This document shows, in pieces, positions 21,215 through 61,272 of a stretch of DNA of 64,000 bases (the first letter of the stretch is position 1; every line of letters begins with the position of its first letter). The DNA lies in IMG/VR virus record IMGVR_UViG_3300031994_000079, positions 1-64,000 of that record. One strand, 5' to 3'. This stretch comes from a virus. Its lineage: Duplodnaviria > Caudoviricetes. Both the position numbers and the translations under genes were made by a program. The notes beneath the pieces are model-generated. The model had not been told where the DNA came from, ran no database searches, and saw only the letters and a program-made list of their open reading frames with translations.

Positions 21215-21373
21215 ATGTTTGCATTTTCCTTTATGTTGTAGTATATTAAATGTGTAGAGGGATTACCTCTTCAACATATCGTTCAGCATAAGAACATTTA
21301 AAAAAATGTCGTTCCAGTGGAGAGAGGCTCCACATTTAATCAAAAATCATTCAGAATGTAGGAGGAATTGAAT

Positions 21374-53457: not shown

Positions 53458-54087
53458 GTGAATGAAGAAATCTTCGGACAAAGATATGCAGACAGACGTA
53501 CACATAGGTCAGGCGTATTATTAGAGTACGATAGCAAGTACAAAACATATCTTCTTGAATCCCAAGATGGTAAAACATTCAATATAACATCAGCACAATT
53601 CAATAAGAATTGGAAACTTACTGATGAAGTAGCAGAAGTAGAACCAATAGAAGCTGAACAGGCAGAAGTTGGTGATAAACGCTACAAAGGACCATCAGAA
53701 GAACAGAAAGACGAGCTGAATAAGATATTGGAAACATTCTTTTTAATCGGCAAAGAGTATGTAGATGAATTTCAAAATGAAATAATCACTATAAAGCCAG
53801 AGCCGTATAAGAGAAGATTTTTGATGAAAGTCAGACATCATACAGTATTTATAATGGATTGTATGTTGAGACGGAGAAATTGCAGAGTATGGTTAAGAGA
53901 GTATATAAGCAGTTTAATGTCTTGGACAGTTAAGCCAATATCAATTAAGCGTTATCCTGGTACTAATATGAATACAGCAGTAGAGTTTCCGCTTGAAAAT
54001 CTTAAAGAAGTGTTAGATGATTTAACAGCAGTTGTAATTCAAGATATGACAGAAATGGAGGAAAAAAGAAATGGGGTGATAAAGTGA
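53458..54087 (+). CDS. Hypothetical protein
   Basis: GTG start, RBS AAGGAGG, own extended -10 promoter. Confidence 0.8.
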   Translation: MNEEIFGQRYADRRTHRSGVLLEYDSKYKTYLLESQDGKTFNITSAQFNKNWKLTDEVAEVEPIEAEQAEVGDKRYKGPSEEQKDELNKILETFFLIGKEYVDEFQNEIITIKPEPYKRRFLMKVRHHTVFIMDCMLRRRNCRVWLREYISSLMSWTVKPISIKRYPGTNMNTAVEFPLENLKEVLDDLTAVVIQDMTEMEEKRNGVIK

Positions 54088-54821
54088 GATATGCAGATGG
54101 TCAATATAGAGAAAAACTTTATACAGTATATATGCATATCACACCAAATAATAAGAGTTATGTAGGTATAACTTGTCAATCACTTGAATGTAGGTGGAAT
54201 GATGGAGATGGTTATAAACATCAGAGATTATTTTGGCGAGCAATTCAAAAGTATGGTTGGGAAAATATAAAGCATATAGAATTGTTTAATGGTTTGTCTT
54301 TTGAAGATGCAAGTAATATTGAAAAAGATTTAATTAGACAGTTTGAATCTAATAATCCAAAATATGGATATAATTTGACAGATGGTGGTGAAGGTATGTC
54401 AGGTTATAAGTTTACAGCAGAGCAGTTAGCTTGGCGTAGTAAAGTTAGTACTGGTAGAAAACATACACAAGCTACAAAAGATAAATTGTCAAAGATGAAG
54501 AAAGGTTCAAAATTAAATCTTACAGATGAACAAAGACAGGCTTGTGCTGAAAGAGGTAGAATACAAGGTATAAAGAATAAAGGTCGTAAGCATACAGAAG
54601 AAGAATGTAATAAGATAAAAGAAGCAGTACATAAGCGTTATGCAAACGGCGGTATAGCACCACATTGTAAACCTCATACTGAGGAGACAAAACGTAAGAT
54701 AAGCGAGAAGCAAAAAGGACGAGTTATATCAGAAGAACACAGAGAAAAATTAAGACAAGCCGCGTTAAAACAGTGGCAAAGACAAAAAGGAGGAATTAAA
54801 AATGAGATTCAGTTACAATGA
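54084..54821 (+). CDS. Free-standing GIY-YIG homing endonuclease with NUMOD3 repeats
   Basis: VYMH...YVGIT, R W, E...I, GYNLTDGGEG, repeated H(T/S)EE.K.K(I/L)S. Confidence 0.92.
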   Translation: MRYADGQYREKLYTVYMHITPNNKSYVGITCQSLECRWNDGDGYKHQRLFWRAIQKYGWENIKHIELFNGLSFEDASNIEKDLIRQFESNNPKYGYNLTDGGEGMSGYKFTAEQLAWRSKVSTGRKHTQATKDKLSKMKKGSKLNLTDEQRQACAERGRIQGIKNKGRKHTEEECNKIKEAVHKRYANGGIAPHCKPHTEETKRKISEKQKGRVISEEHREKLRQAALKQWQRQKGGIKNEIQLQ

Positions 54822-55449
54822 GGCAGATAATTACGGTAGCAATGGTGGTAGTAGTTTTTTCACATTACGTGATGATGGTGATACAGCAAGAGTACGTATT
54901 ATGTATGGCAGTATTGATGATGTAGAAGGTCTTTCAGTACATGAGATAGACCTGAACGATAAGAAAAGGTATGTAAACTGCATCAGAGAATATAATGACC
55001 CGATAGATATGTGTCCTCTTTGCAAAGCAAACTACAAGATACAGGCTAAGTTGTTTGTACCGTTGTATAATGAAGATACAGGCGAAACACTTGTTTGGGA
55101 GAGGGGTAAGAAGTTCTTTGGTAAGATTTCAGATTTGTGTACAAGATATGATAACCTCGTTTCAAGAGTGTTTGAGATTGTAAGACATGGCAAGCCGAAA
55201 GATACAGGTACAACATATGAGATATGGCCTGTAGGTGATAAAGACAATACAACATTTGAAGATTTGCCTGAACCTGTAGATGTTATGAAAGGTATTGTGC
55301 TTGATAAGACAGCAGATGAACTTGACTATTATCTGAGGTATCATGAGTTTCCCGATAATGATGCTCCTGCGAGAGAAGAAGCACCGAGACGCAGAGAGCA
55401 GTCAGTACCTATGAGAAGAACTCCTGCGAGAGGAAATGAGGCATTCTAA
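54802..55449 (+). CDS. Single-stranded DNA-binding protein (gp32-like, Zn-binding)
   Basis: FFTLRDDGD.ARVR, H...C...CPLC, VWERG; lies between primase and polymerase. Confidence 0.75.
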   Translation: MRFSYNEADNYGSNGGSSFFTLRDDGDTARVRIMYGSIDDVEGLSVHEIDLNDKKRYVNCIREYNDPIDMCPLCKANYKIQAKLFVPLYNEDTGETLVWERGKKFFGKISDLCTRYDNLVSRVFEIVRHGKPKDTGTTYEIWPVGDKDNTTFEDLPEPVDVMKGIVLDKTADELDYYLRYHEFPDNDAPAREEAPRRREQSVPMRRTPARGNEAF

Positions 55450-56981
55450 TGGCATTGATAAATATACCTAAGCGAAGCACAAAAGAAAAAGATTTGGCAC
55501 TTGCTAAGAAGTCAAATTCTGTTCAGAAAGCTATCCCCACTGTAAAGGGTGGGGGTAGCATTATTAACAAGATACAAACTATCCAAGCATTAGTTGAGAC
55601 TAAACTTGGTAAATATAAAGATGAATATATTATCATTCGTGATGAAGCCACGTTGATTGATTATATAGATGTATGTATAGAGAATAGTATAATATCTCTT
55701 GATACAGAGACAACCGGGTTAGACCCGTTGCTTGATGAGATAGTTGGTATATGTATCTATACACCGGGTGAGAAAGGTGCATATATTCCTATCAATCATG
55801 TTTCATATATAACATTAGAGCGAGTAGCTAACCAGTTAGATATAGATTTTTTGAATGAACAGTTTACAAGGTTATATGATTGTGAATTAGATAGCATAAT
55901 GTTTAATGCCAAGTTTGATATAAGATTTATGAGAAACAAAGTTGGTGTTAAGAATATTTATTGTACATGGGATAGTTATTTAGCTCAAAGGTGTTTGAAT
56001 GAGAATGAGCCACATAATGGTCTTAAATTGTTACATGAGAAGTATGTTCTCAACGGTGAAGGTGATGCGTGGTCATTCGGTGATTTATTTAAGAATATAT
56101 CATTTTCATATATACCGATTAAGACAGCATATCTGTATGCGGCACGTGACCCGGTTATTACATATGAGCTTTATGATTATCAGAGGAAATATCTGAAAGA
56201 AGATACCGATAGGGAAGATTTAAGAAATGTGTATTGGATATTTAAGAACATAGAAATGCCGTGTGTATCTGTAGTAGCCGATATGGAAGATACTGGTATA
56301 GAGTTCGATTTCGATTATAATGAGAAGTTGAAAGAGAAGTACCATAAGTTATTGGAAGAACGTATACAGAGCTTTAACGAAATGTGCGGTATGTATTCTA
56401 AAGAAATACAAGAGTATAGAGACACAACAGGTTCAAGTTGTAAATTAGATGACCCTATAAATATAAAGTCACCAACACAGCTTGCAATACTTCTCTATGA
56501 TATAATGGGATGTGAAATACCAAAAGATAAAAAGACCAAGAAAGAAGTACGGTCAACAAATGAAGAAACATTGAAGTCAATGGATAATCCTATTGCAAAA
56601 GCAATATTAGATTATAGAGAGTTTTCCACTATTGTAGATACATTCATAGATAAGTTGCCTGAATGTGTCAATCCTAATGATGGTCGTATTCATTGTCAGT
56701 TTAATCAGTACGGTGCAAGAACAGGTAGATTTAGTAGTGAGAACCCTAATATGCAGAACATACCTTCTCATAATAAAGAGATAAGACAGATGTTTAAAGC
56801 AACAGATGATGAATCTATTTTGGAAACAGAGAATGATATATTTATGGTGGACAAATTTGATGAAGTATACACATCTAATGGTTGGGTTAGTTGTAGCAAA
56901 TTAAAAATCGGTGATGATTTAGACGGTTGTATAATCAAATCAATAAAACTCCAAGATGATAAGTATATTATAGGTGTATAG
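55449..56981 (+). CDS. polA: DNA polymerase family A, N-terminal part (3'-5' exonuclease + thumb) with ~59-aa Hint-like tail
   Basis: LDTETTGL, FNAKFD, YAARD, RTGRFSSENPNMQNIP; non-polymerase tail from about 56802. Confidence 0.92.
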   Translation: MALINIPKRSTKEKDLALAKKSNSVQKAIPTVKGGGSIINKIQTIQALVETKLGKYKDEYIIIRDEATLIDYIDVCIENSIISLDTETTGLDPLLDEIVGICIYTPGEKGAYIPINHVSYITLERVANQLDIDFLNEQFTRLYDCELDSIMFNAKFDIRFMRNKVGVKNIYCTWDSYLAQRCLNENEPHNGLKLLHEKYVLNGEGDAWSFGDLFKNISFSYIPIKTAYLYAARDPVITYELYDYQRKYLKEDTDREDLRNVYWIFKNIEMPCVSVVADMEDTGIEFDFDYNEKLKEKYHKLLEERIQSFNEMCGMYSKEIQEYRDTTGSSCKLDDPINIKSPTQLAILLYDIMGCEIPKDKKTKKEVRSTNEETLKSMDNPIAKAILDYREFSTIVDTFIDKLPECVNPNDGRIHCQFNQYGARTGRFSSENPNMQNIPSHNKEIRQMFKATDDESILETENDIFMVDKFDEVYTSNGWVSCSKLKIGDDLDGCIIKSIKLQDDKYIIGV

Positions 56982-57032
56982 ATTTTTCACAACAAGTCAC
57001 AAGCAACTTATCAGAGGAAAATATTGGAAGAA

Positions 57033-57116
57033 ATGAAAAAAGGTTATTGTATGTTTAGGAGAAGAAAATATACTTTTGACATACATTGGTATAGAAAGGG
57101 AGGTGATGCCAAATGA
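57033..57116 (+). CDS. 27-aa basic ORF inside the split polA locus
   Basis: MKKGYCMFRRRKYTFDIHWYRKGGDAK*; its stop overlaps the next ATG (ATGA). Confidence 0.4.
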   Translation: MKKGYCMFRRRKYTFDIHWYRKGGDAK

Positions 57117-57172
57117 AAAAGTCGATAAGAGTTAGAAAAAATTATGTTCTAATGTCTGCCGACTATTCTTAG
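57113..57172 (+). CDS. polA: polA fragment 2 carrying the start of motif A (MKKSIRVRKNYVLMSADYS*)
   Basis: Strong RBS GGGAGGTG; YVLMSADYS is the polymerase motif A with catalytic Asp; ends in TAG at 57170-57172. Confidence 0.8.
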   Translation: MKKSIRVRKNYVLMSADYS

Positions 57173-57173
57173 G

Positions 57174-58082
57174 TCACAGCAAGAGCCAAAGGTCATGACT
57201 ATGATGTGTCAAGACCCGAAGATGATAAAAGCGTATCAAGAAGGGAGAGATTTATATGCGGAGATTGCGTCACTTTCTTTCAATACAACTTATGATAATT
57301 GCCTTGAATTTAGACCCGACGGCACTACTAACAGAGAAGGTAAAGAGCGTAGGAGCCAGGCAAAATCTATATTATTGGGCGTTCTCTACGGCAGAGGTGT
57401 CCCAAGTATTGCAGAACAGCTTGGAACAACTACGAAAAAGGCTCAAACAATCAAAGATAGTGTAATGAAAGGTTTTCCTGCTATTGAAAAATTTGAACAG
57501 GATAGTTTAAGAATGGCAGAAGATTTAGGATATGTAACTACATTGTGGGGTAGAAAGAGAAGATTACCAGATTTACAATTAGATGAGTTTGAGTTTAAAT
57601 GGAAAGATGGTGCACCACAAGATAATGATGTACTGGATTTTGATGAAGAAATAGATTATAATGTACCTATAGAAACGCAGAAAAAATATCTTAGGTTATT
57701 AAGTCAAGCAAGATTCGGTGAGAAGCGTAAGATATTTGAAAAAGCTAACGCAGAAGGAATATGGATAATAGATAACGGGGCGAAGATAGCAGATGCACAA
57801 AGGCAGTGCGTAAATGCAAGAATACAAGGTTCAGCCGCAGATATGTCAAAGTTAGCTATGATAAAAATAGGTAATGATAAGATATTAAAAGAATTAGGTT
57901 TCAGAATGTTAGTGCCAGTACATGATGAAATCATAGCTGAATGTCCTAAAGAACATGCAAAGAAATGTGTAGAGAGGTTTTCACAGTTAATGTCAGAAGC
58001 ACCAGGTGAAAAGTTTACAATACCTATTAAGTGTGATGTAGATGTAACAGAATGTTGGTATGGAGATAAAGTTAAAATTTAG
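57174..58082 (+). CDS. polA: polA fragment 3 (rest of palm and fingers), in +1 frame relative to fragment 2
   Basis: SQQEPKV..., motif B RSQAKSILLGVLYG, NARIQGSAADMSK, motif C VPVHDE. Confidence 0.9.
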   Translation, partial: SQQEPKVMTMMCQDPKMIKAYQEGRDLYAEIASLSFNTTYDNCLEFRPDGTTNREGKERRSQAKSILLGVLYGRGVPSIAEQLGTTTKKAQTIKDSVMKGFPAIEKFEQDSLRMAEDLGYVTTLWGRKRRLPDLQLDEFEFKWKDGAPQDNDVLDFDEEIDYNVPIETQKKYLRLLSQARFGEKRKIFEKANAEGIWIIDNGAKIADAQRQCVNARIQGSAADMSKLAMIKIGNDKILKELGFRMLVPVHDEIIAECPKEHAKKCVERFSQLMSEAPGEKFTIPIKCDVDVTECWYGDKVKI

Positions 58083-58902
58083 TATATTTATAACATCACA
58101 TAATAGTCCATATGAATGTACATCTTATGTTTCATTGAGGACAGCAGGATATACAGGTGACATATATATCGTTATAGATGATACTGACCCTCAGTTTGAT
58201 GAATATGATAGGTCAGGAAATAATCTTGTAGTATTTCATAAGCAGGATTATGTCAAGAAATTAGATATAGGTATGTCTAAATTAAATCCTCAATTAGCCG
58301 CTGTATTGTATGCAAGGGCAGCTGTAGAAGATTTTGCAAAGCAAATGGACTTAGATTATTTTATGGTAATGGATGATGATATATATGGATTTAGGTATAG
58401 ATATTCTGATAAAAATAAGTTATGTTCAAAGCCTGTTGAAAACTTTGATATTCTAATAGATAATTATATTCAGTTTATGAAAGAAAGTAATTCATTATGC
58501 CTATCTTTTGCACATGATGGCTCATTTATAGGTGGGTTAAGTGCTATACCTAAAATATTGGAACGTAGGTCTTGTCATACAATATTTTTACGTGATACGT
58601 CAAAAGAGTTTGAGTGGAAGTTTGCAGTAAATGAAGATTATGTATCATCATTATTGTATGCTAACATAGGAAAATTGATGTTGACATTACCATTTGTTCA
58701 GAGAAATATATCAGGTATGAATGATAGACAAGAAGGTATGCATGATTTATATGAGAGTACCACAGAGTTTCAAAGAGCTTTCTATAATGTAATAGCTTGT
58801 CCTTGGACATGTGTTGTTGCTGAATATAATAATCATTTTGTTGTTAGAACAAATAAGTCCACAGCATATCCAAAAATAATAAGTAGCAGATATAGGAGAT
58901 AA
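58060..58902 (+). CDS. GT-A glycosyltransferase, TAGT/GREB1-like (paralog 1)
   Basis: IFITSH, MDDD, FIGG, NED; aligns by eye with 59276-60160. Confidence 0.7.
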   Translation: MEIKLKFSIFITSHNSPYECTSYVSLRTAGYTGDIYIVIDDTDPQFDEYDRSGNNLVVFHKQDYVKKLDIGMSKLNPQLAAVLYARAAVEDFAKQMDLDYFMVMDDDIYGFRYRYSDKNKLCSKPVENFDILIDNYIQFMKESNSLCLSFAHDGSFIGGLSAIPKILERRSCHTIFLRDTSKEFEWKFAVNEDYVSSLLYANIGKLMLTLPFVQRNISGMNDRQEGMHDLYESTTEFQRAFYNVIACPWTCVVAEYNNHFVVRTNKSTAYPKIISSRYRR

Positions 58903-58905
58903 ATT

Positions 58906-59301
58906 ATGCCATTGATAAATGTAAAGAAAAAGGAAATTGATAATACATATACAACTAAAGTACAGATACCACAATATATTCCAAAACAAGAAAAGCCACC
59001 TATAACAGGGTTAGTAGACACAGAGAAGTATTCAAAATTACTTTATAATATCAATAATAGTAATGTGTCTGAGGAAGAGAAGAAGTTTTTGAGGTTTGCG
59101 GCTGCAAGACATTTAGCATTTAACTATTCATTGATAGCTGATTACTATGCCAACGCAGATAAAGAAATGCAAGAACTTATGGAACAGTCAGCGTTAGTAA
59201 TATTGGATATAGATGATGCTATAGCTAATGGATATGTTAAGTTATCGGATAGCATAAAGCAGTTATTAAAGGAGAGTGGTGAACTTGCATCTAAGGAGTA
59301 A
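58906..59301 (+). CDS. Small helical partner protein found next to phage TAGT-like transferases
   Basis: KFL..AA.RH..FNYS.IADYYA.A..EMQ.LME.SALVI.D.DDAIANGYVKL. Confidence 0.75.
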   Translation: MPLINVKKKEIDNTYTTKVQIPQYIPKQEKPPITGLVDTEKYSKLLYNINNSNVSEEEKKFLRFAAARHLAFNYSLIADYYANADKEMQELMEQSALVILDIDDAIANGYVKLSDSIKQLLKESGELASKE

Positions 59302-60160
59302 TTTTGTTGTATTTATATTATCTCATGGACGACCTAATAAAGTTTACACTTATGACACAATACGAAAATCAGGATATACAGGGCCTATTGTATTAGTGTT
59401 AGATAATGAAGATAATACTATTGACGAATATAAGCATGTATATGAAGCAAAAGAAAATACAGGTGTATATGTATTTGATAAATTAGATATAGCTAATAGG
59501 TATGACGAAGTTGATAGAGGTAAAGATAGACGTACAATATTTTATGCGAGAAATGCCTGTTTTGAAATAGCGAAAAAATTAGATTATACGTATTTTTTGG
59601 AACTCGATGATGATTATGTAAAATTTAGAAGTCGAGTAGATATAGATGGTAAGTTTGCAACTATATATCATACTGACCTCGATTCTTTATTTGAGATAAT
59701 GTTACAATTTTTAGATGATACAAAAGCCTATACCGTAGCGTTTTCACAAACAGGAGATTTTATAGGTGGTATGGGTAGTAGAGTTTATAAAGAAAAATTA
59801 TCAAGAAAGGCTATGAATAGTTTTTTCTGCACTATAGAGAGACCGTTTAAGTTTCTTGGTAGAATAAATGAAGATGTAAATACATATGTTAGTGAAGGTT
59901 CAAAAGGTAATCTTATGTTTACAATAGCTGATGCGTCATTAGACCAGACACAAACACAATCAAATTCTGGCGGTATGACAGAAATGTACCTAAATTCTGG
60001 CACATATGTGAAATCATTTTTTACTATAATAACTAATCCATCAAGTGTCGTTATACATGAAATGGGTAGCTCTCATAAGAGAATACATCATTTAATAGAT
60101 TGGAACAAAGCAGTACCAAAAATAATAAGTAGTAACTTCAAGAAAGGAGAGAAAGTATGA
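59276..60160 (+). CDS. GT-A glycosyltransferase, TAGT/GREB1-like (paralog 2)
   Basis: FILSHGRP, ARNACF, LDDDY, GDFIGG, RKAMNSFF, GRINED, GGMTEMY. Confidence 0.8.
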   Translation: MVNLHLRSNFVVFILSHGRPNKVYTYDTIRKSGYTGPIVLVLDNEDNTIDEYKHVYEAKENTGVYVFDKLDIANRYDEVDRGKDRRTIFYARNACFEIAKKLDYTYFLELDDDYVKFRSRVDIDGKFATIYHTDLDSLFEIMLQFLDDTKAYTVAFSQTGDFIGGMGSRVYKEKLSRKAMNSFFCTIERPFKFLGRINEDVNTYVSEGSKGNLMFTIADASLDQTQTQSNSGGMTEMYLNSGTYVKSFFTIITNPSSVVIHEMGSSHKRIHHLIDWNKAVPKIISSNFKKGEKV

Positions 60161-61272
60161 AGTTTACAATCACAACGGCAGTGTTACAAGACATGCTGAC
60201 AAAATCAACCAAATGTGCATCAAATGACAATCAGAGACCATTAACAGGCTTGATAGCTATTCAGTTGAAGGATAATGTTCTTACGCTGATAACATCAAGC
60301 GCCACTAATTATCTGTATGTTCATAAAGATAAGATAGTTGGTGAAGATTTTTATGTAGTTGTGCCTGTAGAGATATTCTCTAAGTTAGTTTCCAAATTAA
60401 CAGCGGAGAATACAACACTTGAACTTAAGGATAATAATCTGATAGTAACAAGCGGTGGTACATATACAATTGGTGTATCTATTGATGAAGAAGGAGAGCT
60501 TACGAGATATCCTGACCCATATAACACAAGTGATGAGTTTACAAATTATAAGGCTTATCCTATTAAGAAATCAACGCTTAATCTTATTCTTTCAGTCAAT
60601 TCAGCCTCGATAGCAGAAGGTGAGATGGCAAAAGATTTGCCCGAAGTTTACACAGGTTATCATATGTCAGATTCAATAGTAACCACAGATTCTATAAAGA
60701 TGTGCGGTATAGATATAAAGGTATGTGATGAGCCTATACTTGTAAGGCCTGAAACAATGAAGCTGACAGATGTATTTACCGAGGAGAACTTAGAGATAAG
60801 GATAAGTGATGATGCAAGAGGTAATAAGAATATCGTCATAACATCAGCAGGTGATATTGATTGCGATATAGTAAGTAAGTTGTTAGAGAACATGGAAGAT
60901 TTTGCAATCAATGATATAAACGGCTTGTTAGCATCAGATTTTGCCAGCTCATGTGCAATAAGTAAAGTTAAATTCCTGCAGGCGTTAGATAGATTATCAT
61001 TGTTTATAAATAAGTTAGACGATTTCGCCCTGTTTCTCACATTCACTAATGACGGCTTGAAGTTAGCGAATAAGAAGTCAAGTAGTGAGGAAGTAATAGC
61101 TTATGAAGCAAGTGATGATTTTAAGCCTTACTCATGTGTGCTTGATATAAACGCACTTACCAATCAGATAAAAGCAGTACCCGGTGATTTAGTAAATATC
61201 TACTATGGTAATGAAGTAGCTGTCAAGTTTGAAGATGGTAATATTACCCAGATGATAGCACTTATGCAGTAA
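60157..61272 (+). CDS. dnaN: DNA polymerase III beta sliding clamp-like protein
   Basis: 371 aa, repeated three-domain beta-clamp pattern, ..VTTDSIKM.., FLQALDRLSLF, C-terminal LM. Confidence 0.82.
   Translation: MKFTITTAVLQDMLTKSTKCASNDNQRPLTGLIAIQLKDNVLTLITSSATNYLYVHKDKIVGEDFYVVVPVEIFSKLVSKLTAENTTLELKDNNLIVTSGGTYTIGVSIDEEGELTRYPDPYNTSDEFTNYKAYPIKKSTLNLILSVNSASIAEGEMAKDLPEVYTGYHMSDSIVTTDSIKMCGIDIKVCDEPILVRPETMKLTDVFTEENLEIRISDDARGNKNIVITSAGDIDCDIVSKLLENMEDFAINDINGLLASDFASSCAISKVKFLQALDRLSLFINKLDDFALFLTFTNDGLKLANKKSSSEEVIAYEASDDFKPYSCVLDINALTNQIKAVPGDLVNIYYGNEVAVKFEDGNITQMIALMQ

Follow-up and report, generated by a model that had tools for sequence, protein, structure and literature searches.

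The window analysed here, a stretch of 64,000 nt from a viral genome whose source record is complete (72.9 kb, with terminal repeats), encodes a family A DNA polymerase, PolA, in two pieces on the plus strand. Fragment 1 (55449 to 56981; 510 aa) carries the 3'-5' exonuclease, the thumb, and the start of the palm to just before motif A (Pfam PF01612 and positions 9 to 154 of PF00476), followed by a C-terminal tail; its homology to the polymerases of phages phiCTP1 and Dp-1 and of the uncultured relative L003 stops at residue ~453 to 458. The remaining part of motif A, the fingers with motif B, and palm motif C through to the stop codon are encoded by the rest of fragment 2 (57177 to 58082, plus strand; positions 160 to 381 of PF00476). 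A megablast search of GenBank found no near-identical phage. In the closest cultured relatives, phiCTP1 and Dp-1, the polymerase is uninterrupted, and motif A reads Asp-Tyr-Ser-Gln-Gln-Glu-Pro (DYSQQEP) without a break in these two phages as well as in the whole genes of the uncultured L003 and L004, with 77% and 61% amino acid identity to the window polymerase, respectively.

Direct reading of the window sequence from 57161 to 57188 disclosed the codons for Asp-Tyr-Ser, then TAG, a single G, and the codons for Ser-Gln-Gln-Glu-Pro. The catalytic Asp of motif A is encoded by a 19-codon ORF (57113 to 57172) that terminates at TAG (57170 to 57172), and the remaining polymerase (57174 to 58082) is open in the next frame relative to it. 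DNA alignment with L003 and L004 revealed exactly 7 extra nucleotides, placed at 57167 to 57173, although a rightward shift of this boundary by 0 to 2 nt is equally valid because TC is repeated. Three plus-strand elements are distinguished at the junction: the putative take-off codon TCT (Ser; 57167 to 57169), the coding gap consisting of TAG and one base (57170 to 57173; extra compared with L003 and L004), and the putative landing codon TCA (Ser; 57174 to 57176), the triplet directly before the Gln-Gln-Glu-Pro codons. An earlier sequence-only reading of the locus had described this arrangement, with removal of 7 nt restoring DYSQQEP and the catalytic Asp stranded on a 19-aa ORF ahead of an otherwise intact gene; the sequence, the alignment with L003 and L004, and the two reading frames are in agreement with that description.

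The alignment with L003 and L004 also revealed a second insertion of ~332 nt (56809 to 57140) that splits the polymerase gene, terminating the upstream ORF and giving the downstream part a new start. The sequence-only reading, correct about the gap, had overlooked this second insertion and with it the position of the gap at the distal end of a homing-endonuclease cassette. Since the two insertions add up to 339 nt (332 + 7), the N- and C-terminal parts of the polymerase lie in one frame, from which the 19-codon ORF alone departs. The 332 nt are accounted for by a coding tail, an endonuclease remnant, and a leader. Rfam models, those of group I introns included, gave no match at the gathering threshold anywhere in the window, nor at E values up to 10 between 56500 and 57500. 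Neither a promoter nor a terminator scored above chance in the spacer, and for this reason the two polymerase halves are probably co-transcribed.

Both insertions belong to a single mobile cassette with a build like that of the T4 MobA/gene 60 element. Its order is the fragment 1 tail, a GIY-YIG endonuclease, a strong ribosome-binding site, a leader of 9 codons, a target replacement of 10 codons, and the stop-containing gap. Of the endonuclease, the window keeps no more than the last 34 codons (56997 to 57098, plus strand), without a start or a catalytic domain; by tblastn they match residues 196 to 229 of the 229-aa GIY-YIG protein of L053 with 88% identity (E 5e-16), and its deletion in this phage was therefore fairly recent. 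Relatives carry a GIY-YIG gene of 229 to 253 aa between the polymerase halves (PF01541, E 1e-7 to 1e-10), and some related contigs hold extra cargo, or a methyltransferase instead of the endonuclease, at the same site.

The remnant is followed by a very strong Shine-Dalgarno sequence (SD) for the C-fragment gene (57093 to 57107, plus strand), recognized by its predicted duplex with the anti-SD. Computed against a typical Firmicute anti-SD, this duplex reaches -19.8 kcal/mol and is the strongest when compared with the 62 plus-strand ORFs of at least 100 aa (median -10.3, next best -16.3), and a very strong SD is common to all split relatives. The basic leader (57113 to 57139, plus strand), a cassette-encoded N-terminal extension of fragment 2, has no counterpart in uninterrupted genes; 8 to 9 basic leader residues are kept in all split relatives, and the distance from the start to the take-off codon is always 18 to 19 codons. 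The next 10 codons (57140 to 57169, plus strand), ending with TCT, encode the strand that runs up to the catalytic Asp, align with uninterrupted genes, and constitute the cassette-borne target replacement. Among the best 120 protein matches, no split allele was found that has the leader without the gap; the short uninterrupted gene calls among those 120 are ordinary genes called from internal Met codons.

The same or variant inserts, which the sequence-only reading had proposed to look for in related phages, are widespread. Pattern scans of IMG/VR and of JGI metagenomes with the gap left unconstrained gave 37 contigs of the family with 26 unique contexts, and four Logan/ENA contigs supplied further junction forms beyond these 26. 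The pattern demanded a stop directly after the Ser codon, and alleles of another build would escape it; many of the junction alleles are related by descent and hence are not independent trials. A protein search with the downstream ORF retrieved over a thousand fragment-sized relatives, and about 30 diverged relatives are interrupted at the same spot, with implied shifts of 6 to 16 nt. Interruptions at this very site recur in 26 unique contexts that come from many metagenomes assembled independently, and the 7-nt insert is therefore evidently real and neither a chance event nor an assembly slip. Many gene calls in these relatives start with an out-of-frame reading of the junction. Gene callers misannotate these polymerases as truncated or frameshifted, and in one 3-nt allele TAG was read as Gln.

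Comparison of the junctions disclosed fixed and drifting elements. The take-off codon is TCT in 26/26 contexts and TCG in two further contigs, while TCC, TCT, AGT, and TCA interchange freely as the Ser codon two positions upstream. The triplet after the take-off codon is always a stop, with TAG, TAA, and TGA all represented and TGG never; this regularity is partly imposed by the search pattern, and it also holds for the alleles obtained from protein matches. Gap lengths are 3, 4, 6, 7, or 13 nt, with 4 nt the commonest class (17 of the 26 contexts; the base after the stop is G, A, or T) and 3 nt found in L016, L018, L019, and L066. The window's exact junction occurs in seven of the 26 contexts. 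The landing triplet before the Gln-Gln codons is TCA in 19 contexts, TCT in five, and TCC in two. A single tRNA could read both the take-off codon and the landing codon in the window (UCU to UCA) and in every one of the 26 contexts (UCU to UCA, UCU, or UCC). Beyond these contexts, a TCG landing is paired with a TCG take-off in L063, and the L064 allele (four contigs), with UCG as take-off and UUG as landing codon, has the sole non-Ser landing. The codons for Ser-Gln-Gln-Glu-Pro-Lys after the gap show synonymous changes only.

In the polymerase tree, one clade (support 100/96) unites alleles with 3-, 4-, and 13-nt gaps and an uninterrupted allele, and the other main clade has 3- and 4-nt alleles mixed with an uninterrupted one. 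Across these alleles, gap length and frame appear to drift while the enzyme is conserved, as is expected of a mobile cassette. No conserved RNA structure was found at the junction by RNAalifold on 24 junctions (-0.24 kcal/mol); the sole pairing, of 5 bp and AU-rich, is imposed by coding and is broken in the TCG alleles.

To judge whether these genes are alive, we considered the downstream part. Of the interrupted relatives, 28 extend to the end of fragment 2, and every one of them has it complete (299 to 317 codons). Compared with the window, its dN/dS is 0.06 to 0.20 with pS of 0.6 to 0.86, indicative of saturated synonymous sites; the ungapped identity between L010 and L019 past the junction is distorted by indels and was left out of account. 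Taken together, the intact fragment, the low dN/dS, and the saturated synonymous sites argue that the interruption has persisted over a long divergence under purifying selection. In addition, the split PolA is the only DNA polymerase found in the 72.9-kb genome, in which no match to PolB or PolIII-alpha was detected. In a genome that is metagenome-assembled and that holds a decayed endonuclease in the window, one could suspect that the gene is dead or decaying, that a mutation has recently inactivated it, or that the assembly is at fault, and the sequence-only reading had cautioned that an assembly error or recent inactivation was possible. The recurrence of the interruption at this site in dozens of independent assemblies, the intact fragment 2 under selection, and the lack of another polymerase in a complete genome all speak against this explanation, which we regard as highly improbable. 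The outcome that the sequence-only reading had named as contrary to its proposal, relatives that are all uninterrupted with a decaying gene here, is not what the 28 intact interrupted relatives show.

The tail of fragment 1 raises the question of whether the polymerase is mended after translation. This C-terminal extension of 57 aa (56808 to 56978, plus strand) is absent from uninterrupted relatives, and none of the cultured phages carries the domain; split relatives have 55 to 65 residues, conserved across 21 sequences. AlphaFold predicted a small beta domain (pLDDT 87 to 92). The top six VIA-align matches were inteins (N-halves) at rmsd 1.2 to 1.8 Å over 42 to 47 residues, with Z scores of 3.9 to 4.4 that lie below the safe threshold, and Foldseek returned weak E values of 0.2 to 0.5. 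The predicted tail is weakly Hint/intein-N-like. This likeness, and the existence of known endonuclease-split genes with split inteins, would be in line with split-intein protein trans-splicing as in a "fractured gene," and a second form of repair would be excision of the gap from the mRNA. Protein splicing, however, cannot take a stop codon out of an mRNA. Moreover, no splicing nucleophile (Cys or Ser) is conserved at the position of intein residue 1 in the split relatives, where M, V, I, E, T, and F occur, and the 9-residue leader has neither His-Asn nor a following nucleophile. The split-intein "fractured gene" was rejected on the grounds of this weak fold likeness and the absent splicing residues. 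As for excision from the mRNA, there is no Rfam family and no conserved structure, and 3 to 13 nt is far below the size of any self-splicing intron; the micro-splicing that the sequence-only reading had considered plausible is likewise without support at such a junction. Repair by splicing of either kind is extremely improbable.

Stop recoding occurs in some gut phages, and the stop at the junction could in principle be read as an amino acid, by reassignment or by suppression; the gene call with TAG as Gln in a 3-nt allele is of this type. Against this, all three stop codons occur at the site and all three also end ordinary genes of the window, in accordance with the standard code (TAA 27, TGA 25, TAG 10), and no tRNA gene was found in the 72.9-kb genome. 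Nor are ordinary genes of these phages seen to be broken by the stop present at the junction. Most alleles are also out of frame, and readthrough would fit only the 3- and 6-nt gaps, in which the stop lies in frame. We therefore give this explanation hardly any credence.

Another way to leave the stop untouched is a three-piece enzyme, made without recoding, in which translation terminates at UAG and restarts at the AUG at 57195 or at an AUG within the gap, with the 19-residue peptide providing the catalytic Asp in trans or with fragment 2 being non-catalytic. The AUG at 57195 is only 22 nt past the stop, the 6- and 13-nt gaps hold an in-frame AUG, and gene callers predict such products. A start at 57195 would, however, leave seven conserved post-gap codons untranslated, even though these change only synonymously. 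Furthermore, ATG, GTG, and TTG are all absent from the downstream frame ahead of the Ser-Gln-Gln-Glu-Pro-Lys codons in 12/26 contexts, including the window, and therefore ribosomes must enter this frame from the mini-ORF. We know of no way to build a polymerase, given the structures of family A enzymes, from a separate 19-mer that holds a buried strand and a metal-binding Asp. These considerations make a restart very unlikely.

Entry from the mini-ORF could be a programmed +1 frameshift, the alternative named in the sequence-only reading. In the 4-nt alleles, a shift at UCU-UAG would lengthen motif A by two residues, to Asp-Tyr-Ser-Arg-Ser-Gln-Gln, and other alleles would need other mechanisms. 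A stop in the A site with a 4-nt gap fits a shifty stop of the prfB type, the +1 frame of the window is open through the gap, and 4-nt gaps are the commonest class. Nevertheless, the gap itself closes the +1 frame with TGA or TAA in each of the five 13-nt contexts, and a shift is needless and without meaning for the in-frame 3- and 6-nt alleles, so that it is workable for 4- and 7-nt gaps only. Different gap classes are mixed within one tight clade. Re-pairing from UCU to CUU would be poor, with a mismatch at the first position. The would-be inserted residue varies (Arg, Lys, Ser, Glu) and is thus not selected. In all uninterrupted relatives, the steric-gate Glu lies five residues from the Asp, a distance to which a shift would add two or three variable residues. 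Frameshifting is accordingly an unlikely explanation, though less so than those weighed above.

The reading we prefer is programmed translational bypassing, that is, a short "stop-hop" inside a homing-endonuclease cassette, which we consider likely from the sequence comparisons. Such a hop is independent of frame and is, with good probability, the only mechanism by which each allele regains DYSQQEP; it is left as the sole common mechanism because the 13-nt alleles lack an open +1 frame and those with 3 and 6 nt have their stop in frame. The proposal of the sequence-only reading, a hop from a Ser take-off codon over the stop to a Ser landing codon, thereby gains support, since no other reading accounts for every related allele. 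Some observations count against a hop: L064 lands on UUG, the AUG in the 6- and 13-nt gaps could permit re-initiation, and there is no stem-loop like that of gene 60.

We infer the following course of events. A GIY-YIG cassette would have entered the gene of the family A polymerase immediately upstream of motif A. Ribosomes would initiate at ATG 57113 and read 19 codons, which would place peptidyl-tRNA-Ser in the P site on UCU (57167 to 57169) while UAG occupies the A site. The anticodon would then release, the mRNA would slide by 7 nt, and the same tRNA would re-pair with UCA (57174 to 57176). With decoding restarting at CAG, Ser would be encoded once, motif A would read DYSQQEP, and fragment 2 would amount to 320 aa. 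This product could join the 510-aa fragment 1 non-covalently, possibly by way of the tail and the leader.

The yield of the hop may be small because synthetic stop-hops are of low efficiency; those engineered in E. coli reportedly reach about 1%. The SD of the mini-ORF, the strongest in the comparison, is what one would expect were frequent initiation to compensate for a low yield of hops. If the hop is instead efficient, its stimulators must be something other than a take-off hairpin, which this junction lacks. Speculatively, one may think of the A-site stop, weak pairing at UCU, the basic leader located in the tunnel when codon 19 is reached, and the heavy ribosome loading driven by the SD. 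The conserved basic leader and its fixed spacing of 18 to 19 codons could be a nascent-peptide signal, and they could equally serve subunit assembly.

As for the origin of the gap, we infer by analogy with MobA that it probably spoils the endonuclease target in the cassette-bearing allele, a role in immunity. The gap is 29 nt from the cassette insertion point. Such a spacing is reminiscent of the distance between the binding and cleavage sites of GIY-YIG enzymes of the I-TevI type. Extending this thought, we tentatively raise the possibility of a natural family of short, structure-independent stop-hops (6 to 16 nt) that are made efficient by a basic leader, a strong SD, or both, and that travel with homing endonucleases as "immunity by recoding."

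Altogether, the locus probably corresponds to the T4 gene 60/MobA cassette in miniature and without its hairpin; it is situated in a family A polymerase, and in this phage it has already lost the endonuclease. Very few cases of natural bypassing outside yeast mitochondria are known, namely T4 gene 60 with its homologues and the Hau3 terminase. The alleles described here, dozens of natural variants in gap length, stop, and landing codon within one essential gene, constitute a ready comparative series that would address what makes a ribosome release and re-pair without a take-off hairpin. They also extend the MobA idea, an endonuclease with a recoding insert that protects its own allele, to another enzyme, another endonuclease family, and phages of the Gram-positive type. 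If this is true, stop-hops might represent a strategy used generally by phage replication genes and be no peculiarity of T4, a generalization that we offer with reserve. A literature search found no published short hops in phage polymerases; the work on T4 and MobA deals with the topoisomerase only and leaves polymerases unmentioned.

In T4, the gene 60 bypass lies within the MobA homing-endonuclease element (Huang 1988; Bonocora 2011; Manning and Atkins, bioRxiv 10.1101/2022.08.31.505936). This element is made up of a C-terminal extension, the endonuclease, an N-terminal extension, a homologous replacement region, and the bypass cassette, and the endonuclease may be replaced or lost while the tails and the bypass are kept (10.1101/2022.08.31.505936). 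The locus described here resembles it in that a free-standing homing endonuclease, with a tail, a leader, a target copy, and a gap, has divided a gene essential for replication, that the gap lies within a conserved active-site motif, and that loss or exchange of the endonuclease is frequent, with the tails and the gap retained. This likeness rests on the architecture as described, and sequence homology is not expected. The two also differ in several respects. The host gene encodes a family A polymerase here and topoisomerase II in T4, and the endonuclease is GIY-YIG in contrast to the HNH enzyme MobA. The gap of gene 60 is 50 nt long (20 nt in one clade) as opposed to 3 to 13 nt; a 4-nt gap is too short to hold a stem-loop, and the take-off stem-loop of gene 60 has no equivalent here. 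Take-off occurs after 46 codons in gene 60 and would occur 18 to 19 codons after the start here, with tRNA-Ser in place of tRNA-Gly.

Breakage of a replication enzyme gene by a free-standing endonuclease, be it GIY-YIG, HNH, or Vsr, is likewise shared with the fractured genes, which combine a split intein with a free-standing endonuclease (Dassa et al. 2009, PMC2677866), and with T4-like gp43 and NrdA. Unlike the fractured genes, the polymerase described here has no splicing residues and no C-part of an intein, and the fractured genes lack a stop-containing gap in fragment 2.

A short-range bypass in a phage gene is also known from the terminase of Streptomyces phage Hau3, for which the junction peptide was detected by mass spectrometry in E. 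coli (PMC10732093). The Hau3 bypass is triggered by the rare codon UUA, is thought to be regulatory, and, unlike the one proposed here, involves neither a homing endonuclease nor a split gene (PMC10732093). The proposed hop in the polymerase would likewise take off next to a slow A-site codon.

The byp inserts of mitochondria are 27 to 55 nt long. In Magnusiomyces capitatus, essential genes contain many of these short inserts, which are corrected by translational jumping (Lang 2014). According to the same account, the match between take-off and landing is sometimes imperfect, in which respect L064 is similar. The byp system differs from ours in being mitochondrial, with relaxed decoding, and in having inserts that are not endonuclease cassettes.

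A further precedent is the synthetic "stop-hop" engineered in E. coli, a low-efficiency event in which 9 nt specify one residue (Weiss, Dunn, Atkins, and Gesteland 1987). According to a 2016 review of recoding, natural in-frame stop-hops were not known. The four 3-nt alleles have the exact form of the synthetic stop-hop, and the 7-nt shift of the window corresponds to its out-of-frame version; unlike in the engineered constructs, this form is naturally conserved here in an essential gene.

The contig L064 (1500–1530), from a related phage, and likewise L065 carry a variant of the polymerase motif A junction in which Asp-Phe-Ser, with UCG as the take-off codon, is followed by UAG, a single A, and then UUG before Gln-Gln. 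This allele is present on four contigs, with UUG replacing the landing Ser codon; under the hop model, in which peptidyl-tRNA-Ser leaves the take-off codon and re-pairs at the landing codon, landing here means re-pairing with a G-U mismatch at the middle position, the sole imperfect landing seen among the alleles. The 6-, 7-, and 13-nt gaps have a common GAATG or AAATGG core (L008, 3494–3510; L067, 1497–1505; L013, L014, L044, L047, and L057), which in the 6- and 13-nt forms supplies an AUG in the reading frame of the downstream part. The sharing of this core could be a result of common descent, or the core could provide a back-up restart site. The 3-nt allele of L066 (104–1108) is an example of how such junctions become mis-annotated: in the public gene call it was translated with TAG as Gln, so that motif A acquired a spurious Ser-Gln-Ser insertion.

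Between the two polymerase halves, some relatives have other genes that replace or accompany the endonuclease (L006, 2792–3451; L014, 2127–3107; L027, 676–1677; L010, 763–1332): one encodes an N6/N4 DNA methyltransferase, one is PAPS-reductase-like, one matches radical SAM weakly, and one is an unknown ORF. In L015 and L017 this space is down to 43 nt and all else has been lost; the gap is still kept.

The window contains a second homing endonuclease gene, free-standing and intact, at 54084–54821 (+) with a NUMOD3 motif. The N-terminal half of its product is approximately 30% identical to the GIY-YIG genes by which relatives have their polymerase split. This endonuclease gene is flanked by an unknown gene and an SSB-like gene, overlapping both by a few bases, and the polymerase is located two genes downstream.

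Directly 3' of the polymerase are two TET-associated glycosyltransferase (TAGT) genes (58060–58902 and 59276–60160, both +; E = 2e-15 and 1e-31), which suggests sugar-modified DNA bases. In the relatives L007 and L008, this place is occupied instead by 7-deazaguanine-type genes (QueC, PTPS, radical SAM, and GTP cyclohydrolase I) together with DNA methyltransferases. A gene for a DNA polymerase III beta-like sliding clamp is positioned at 60157–61272 (+), matched in its N-terminal domain (E = 4e-6). Elsewhere, a GP20-a RNA motif at 21277–21368 (+) scores 57 bits, the gathering score being 47; no other Rfam family passes the threshold anywhere in the window.

The cassette-encoded C-terminal extension of polymerase fragment 1 (56808–56978, +; alignment A3) is conserved and confidently predicted as a small beta domain. 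Its top structural matches are intein N-halves, but these are weak, and the extension lacks a nucleophile. It may be a split-intein relic, reused for holding the two polymerase halves together.
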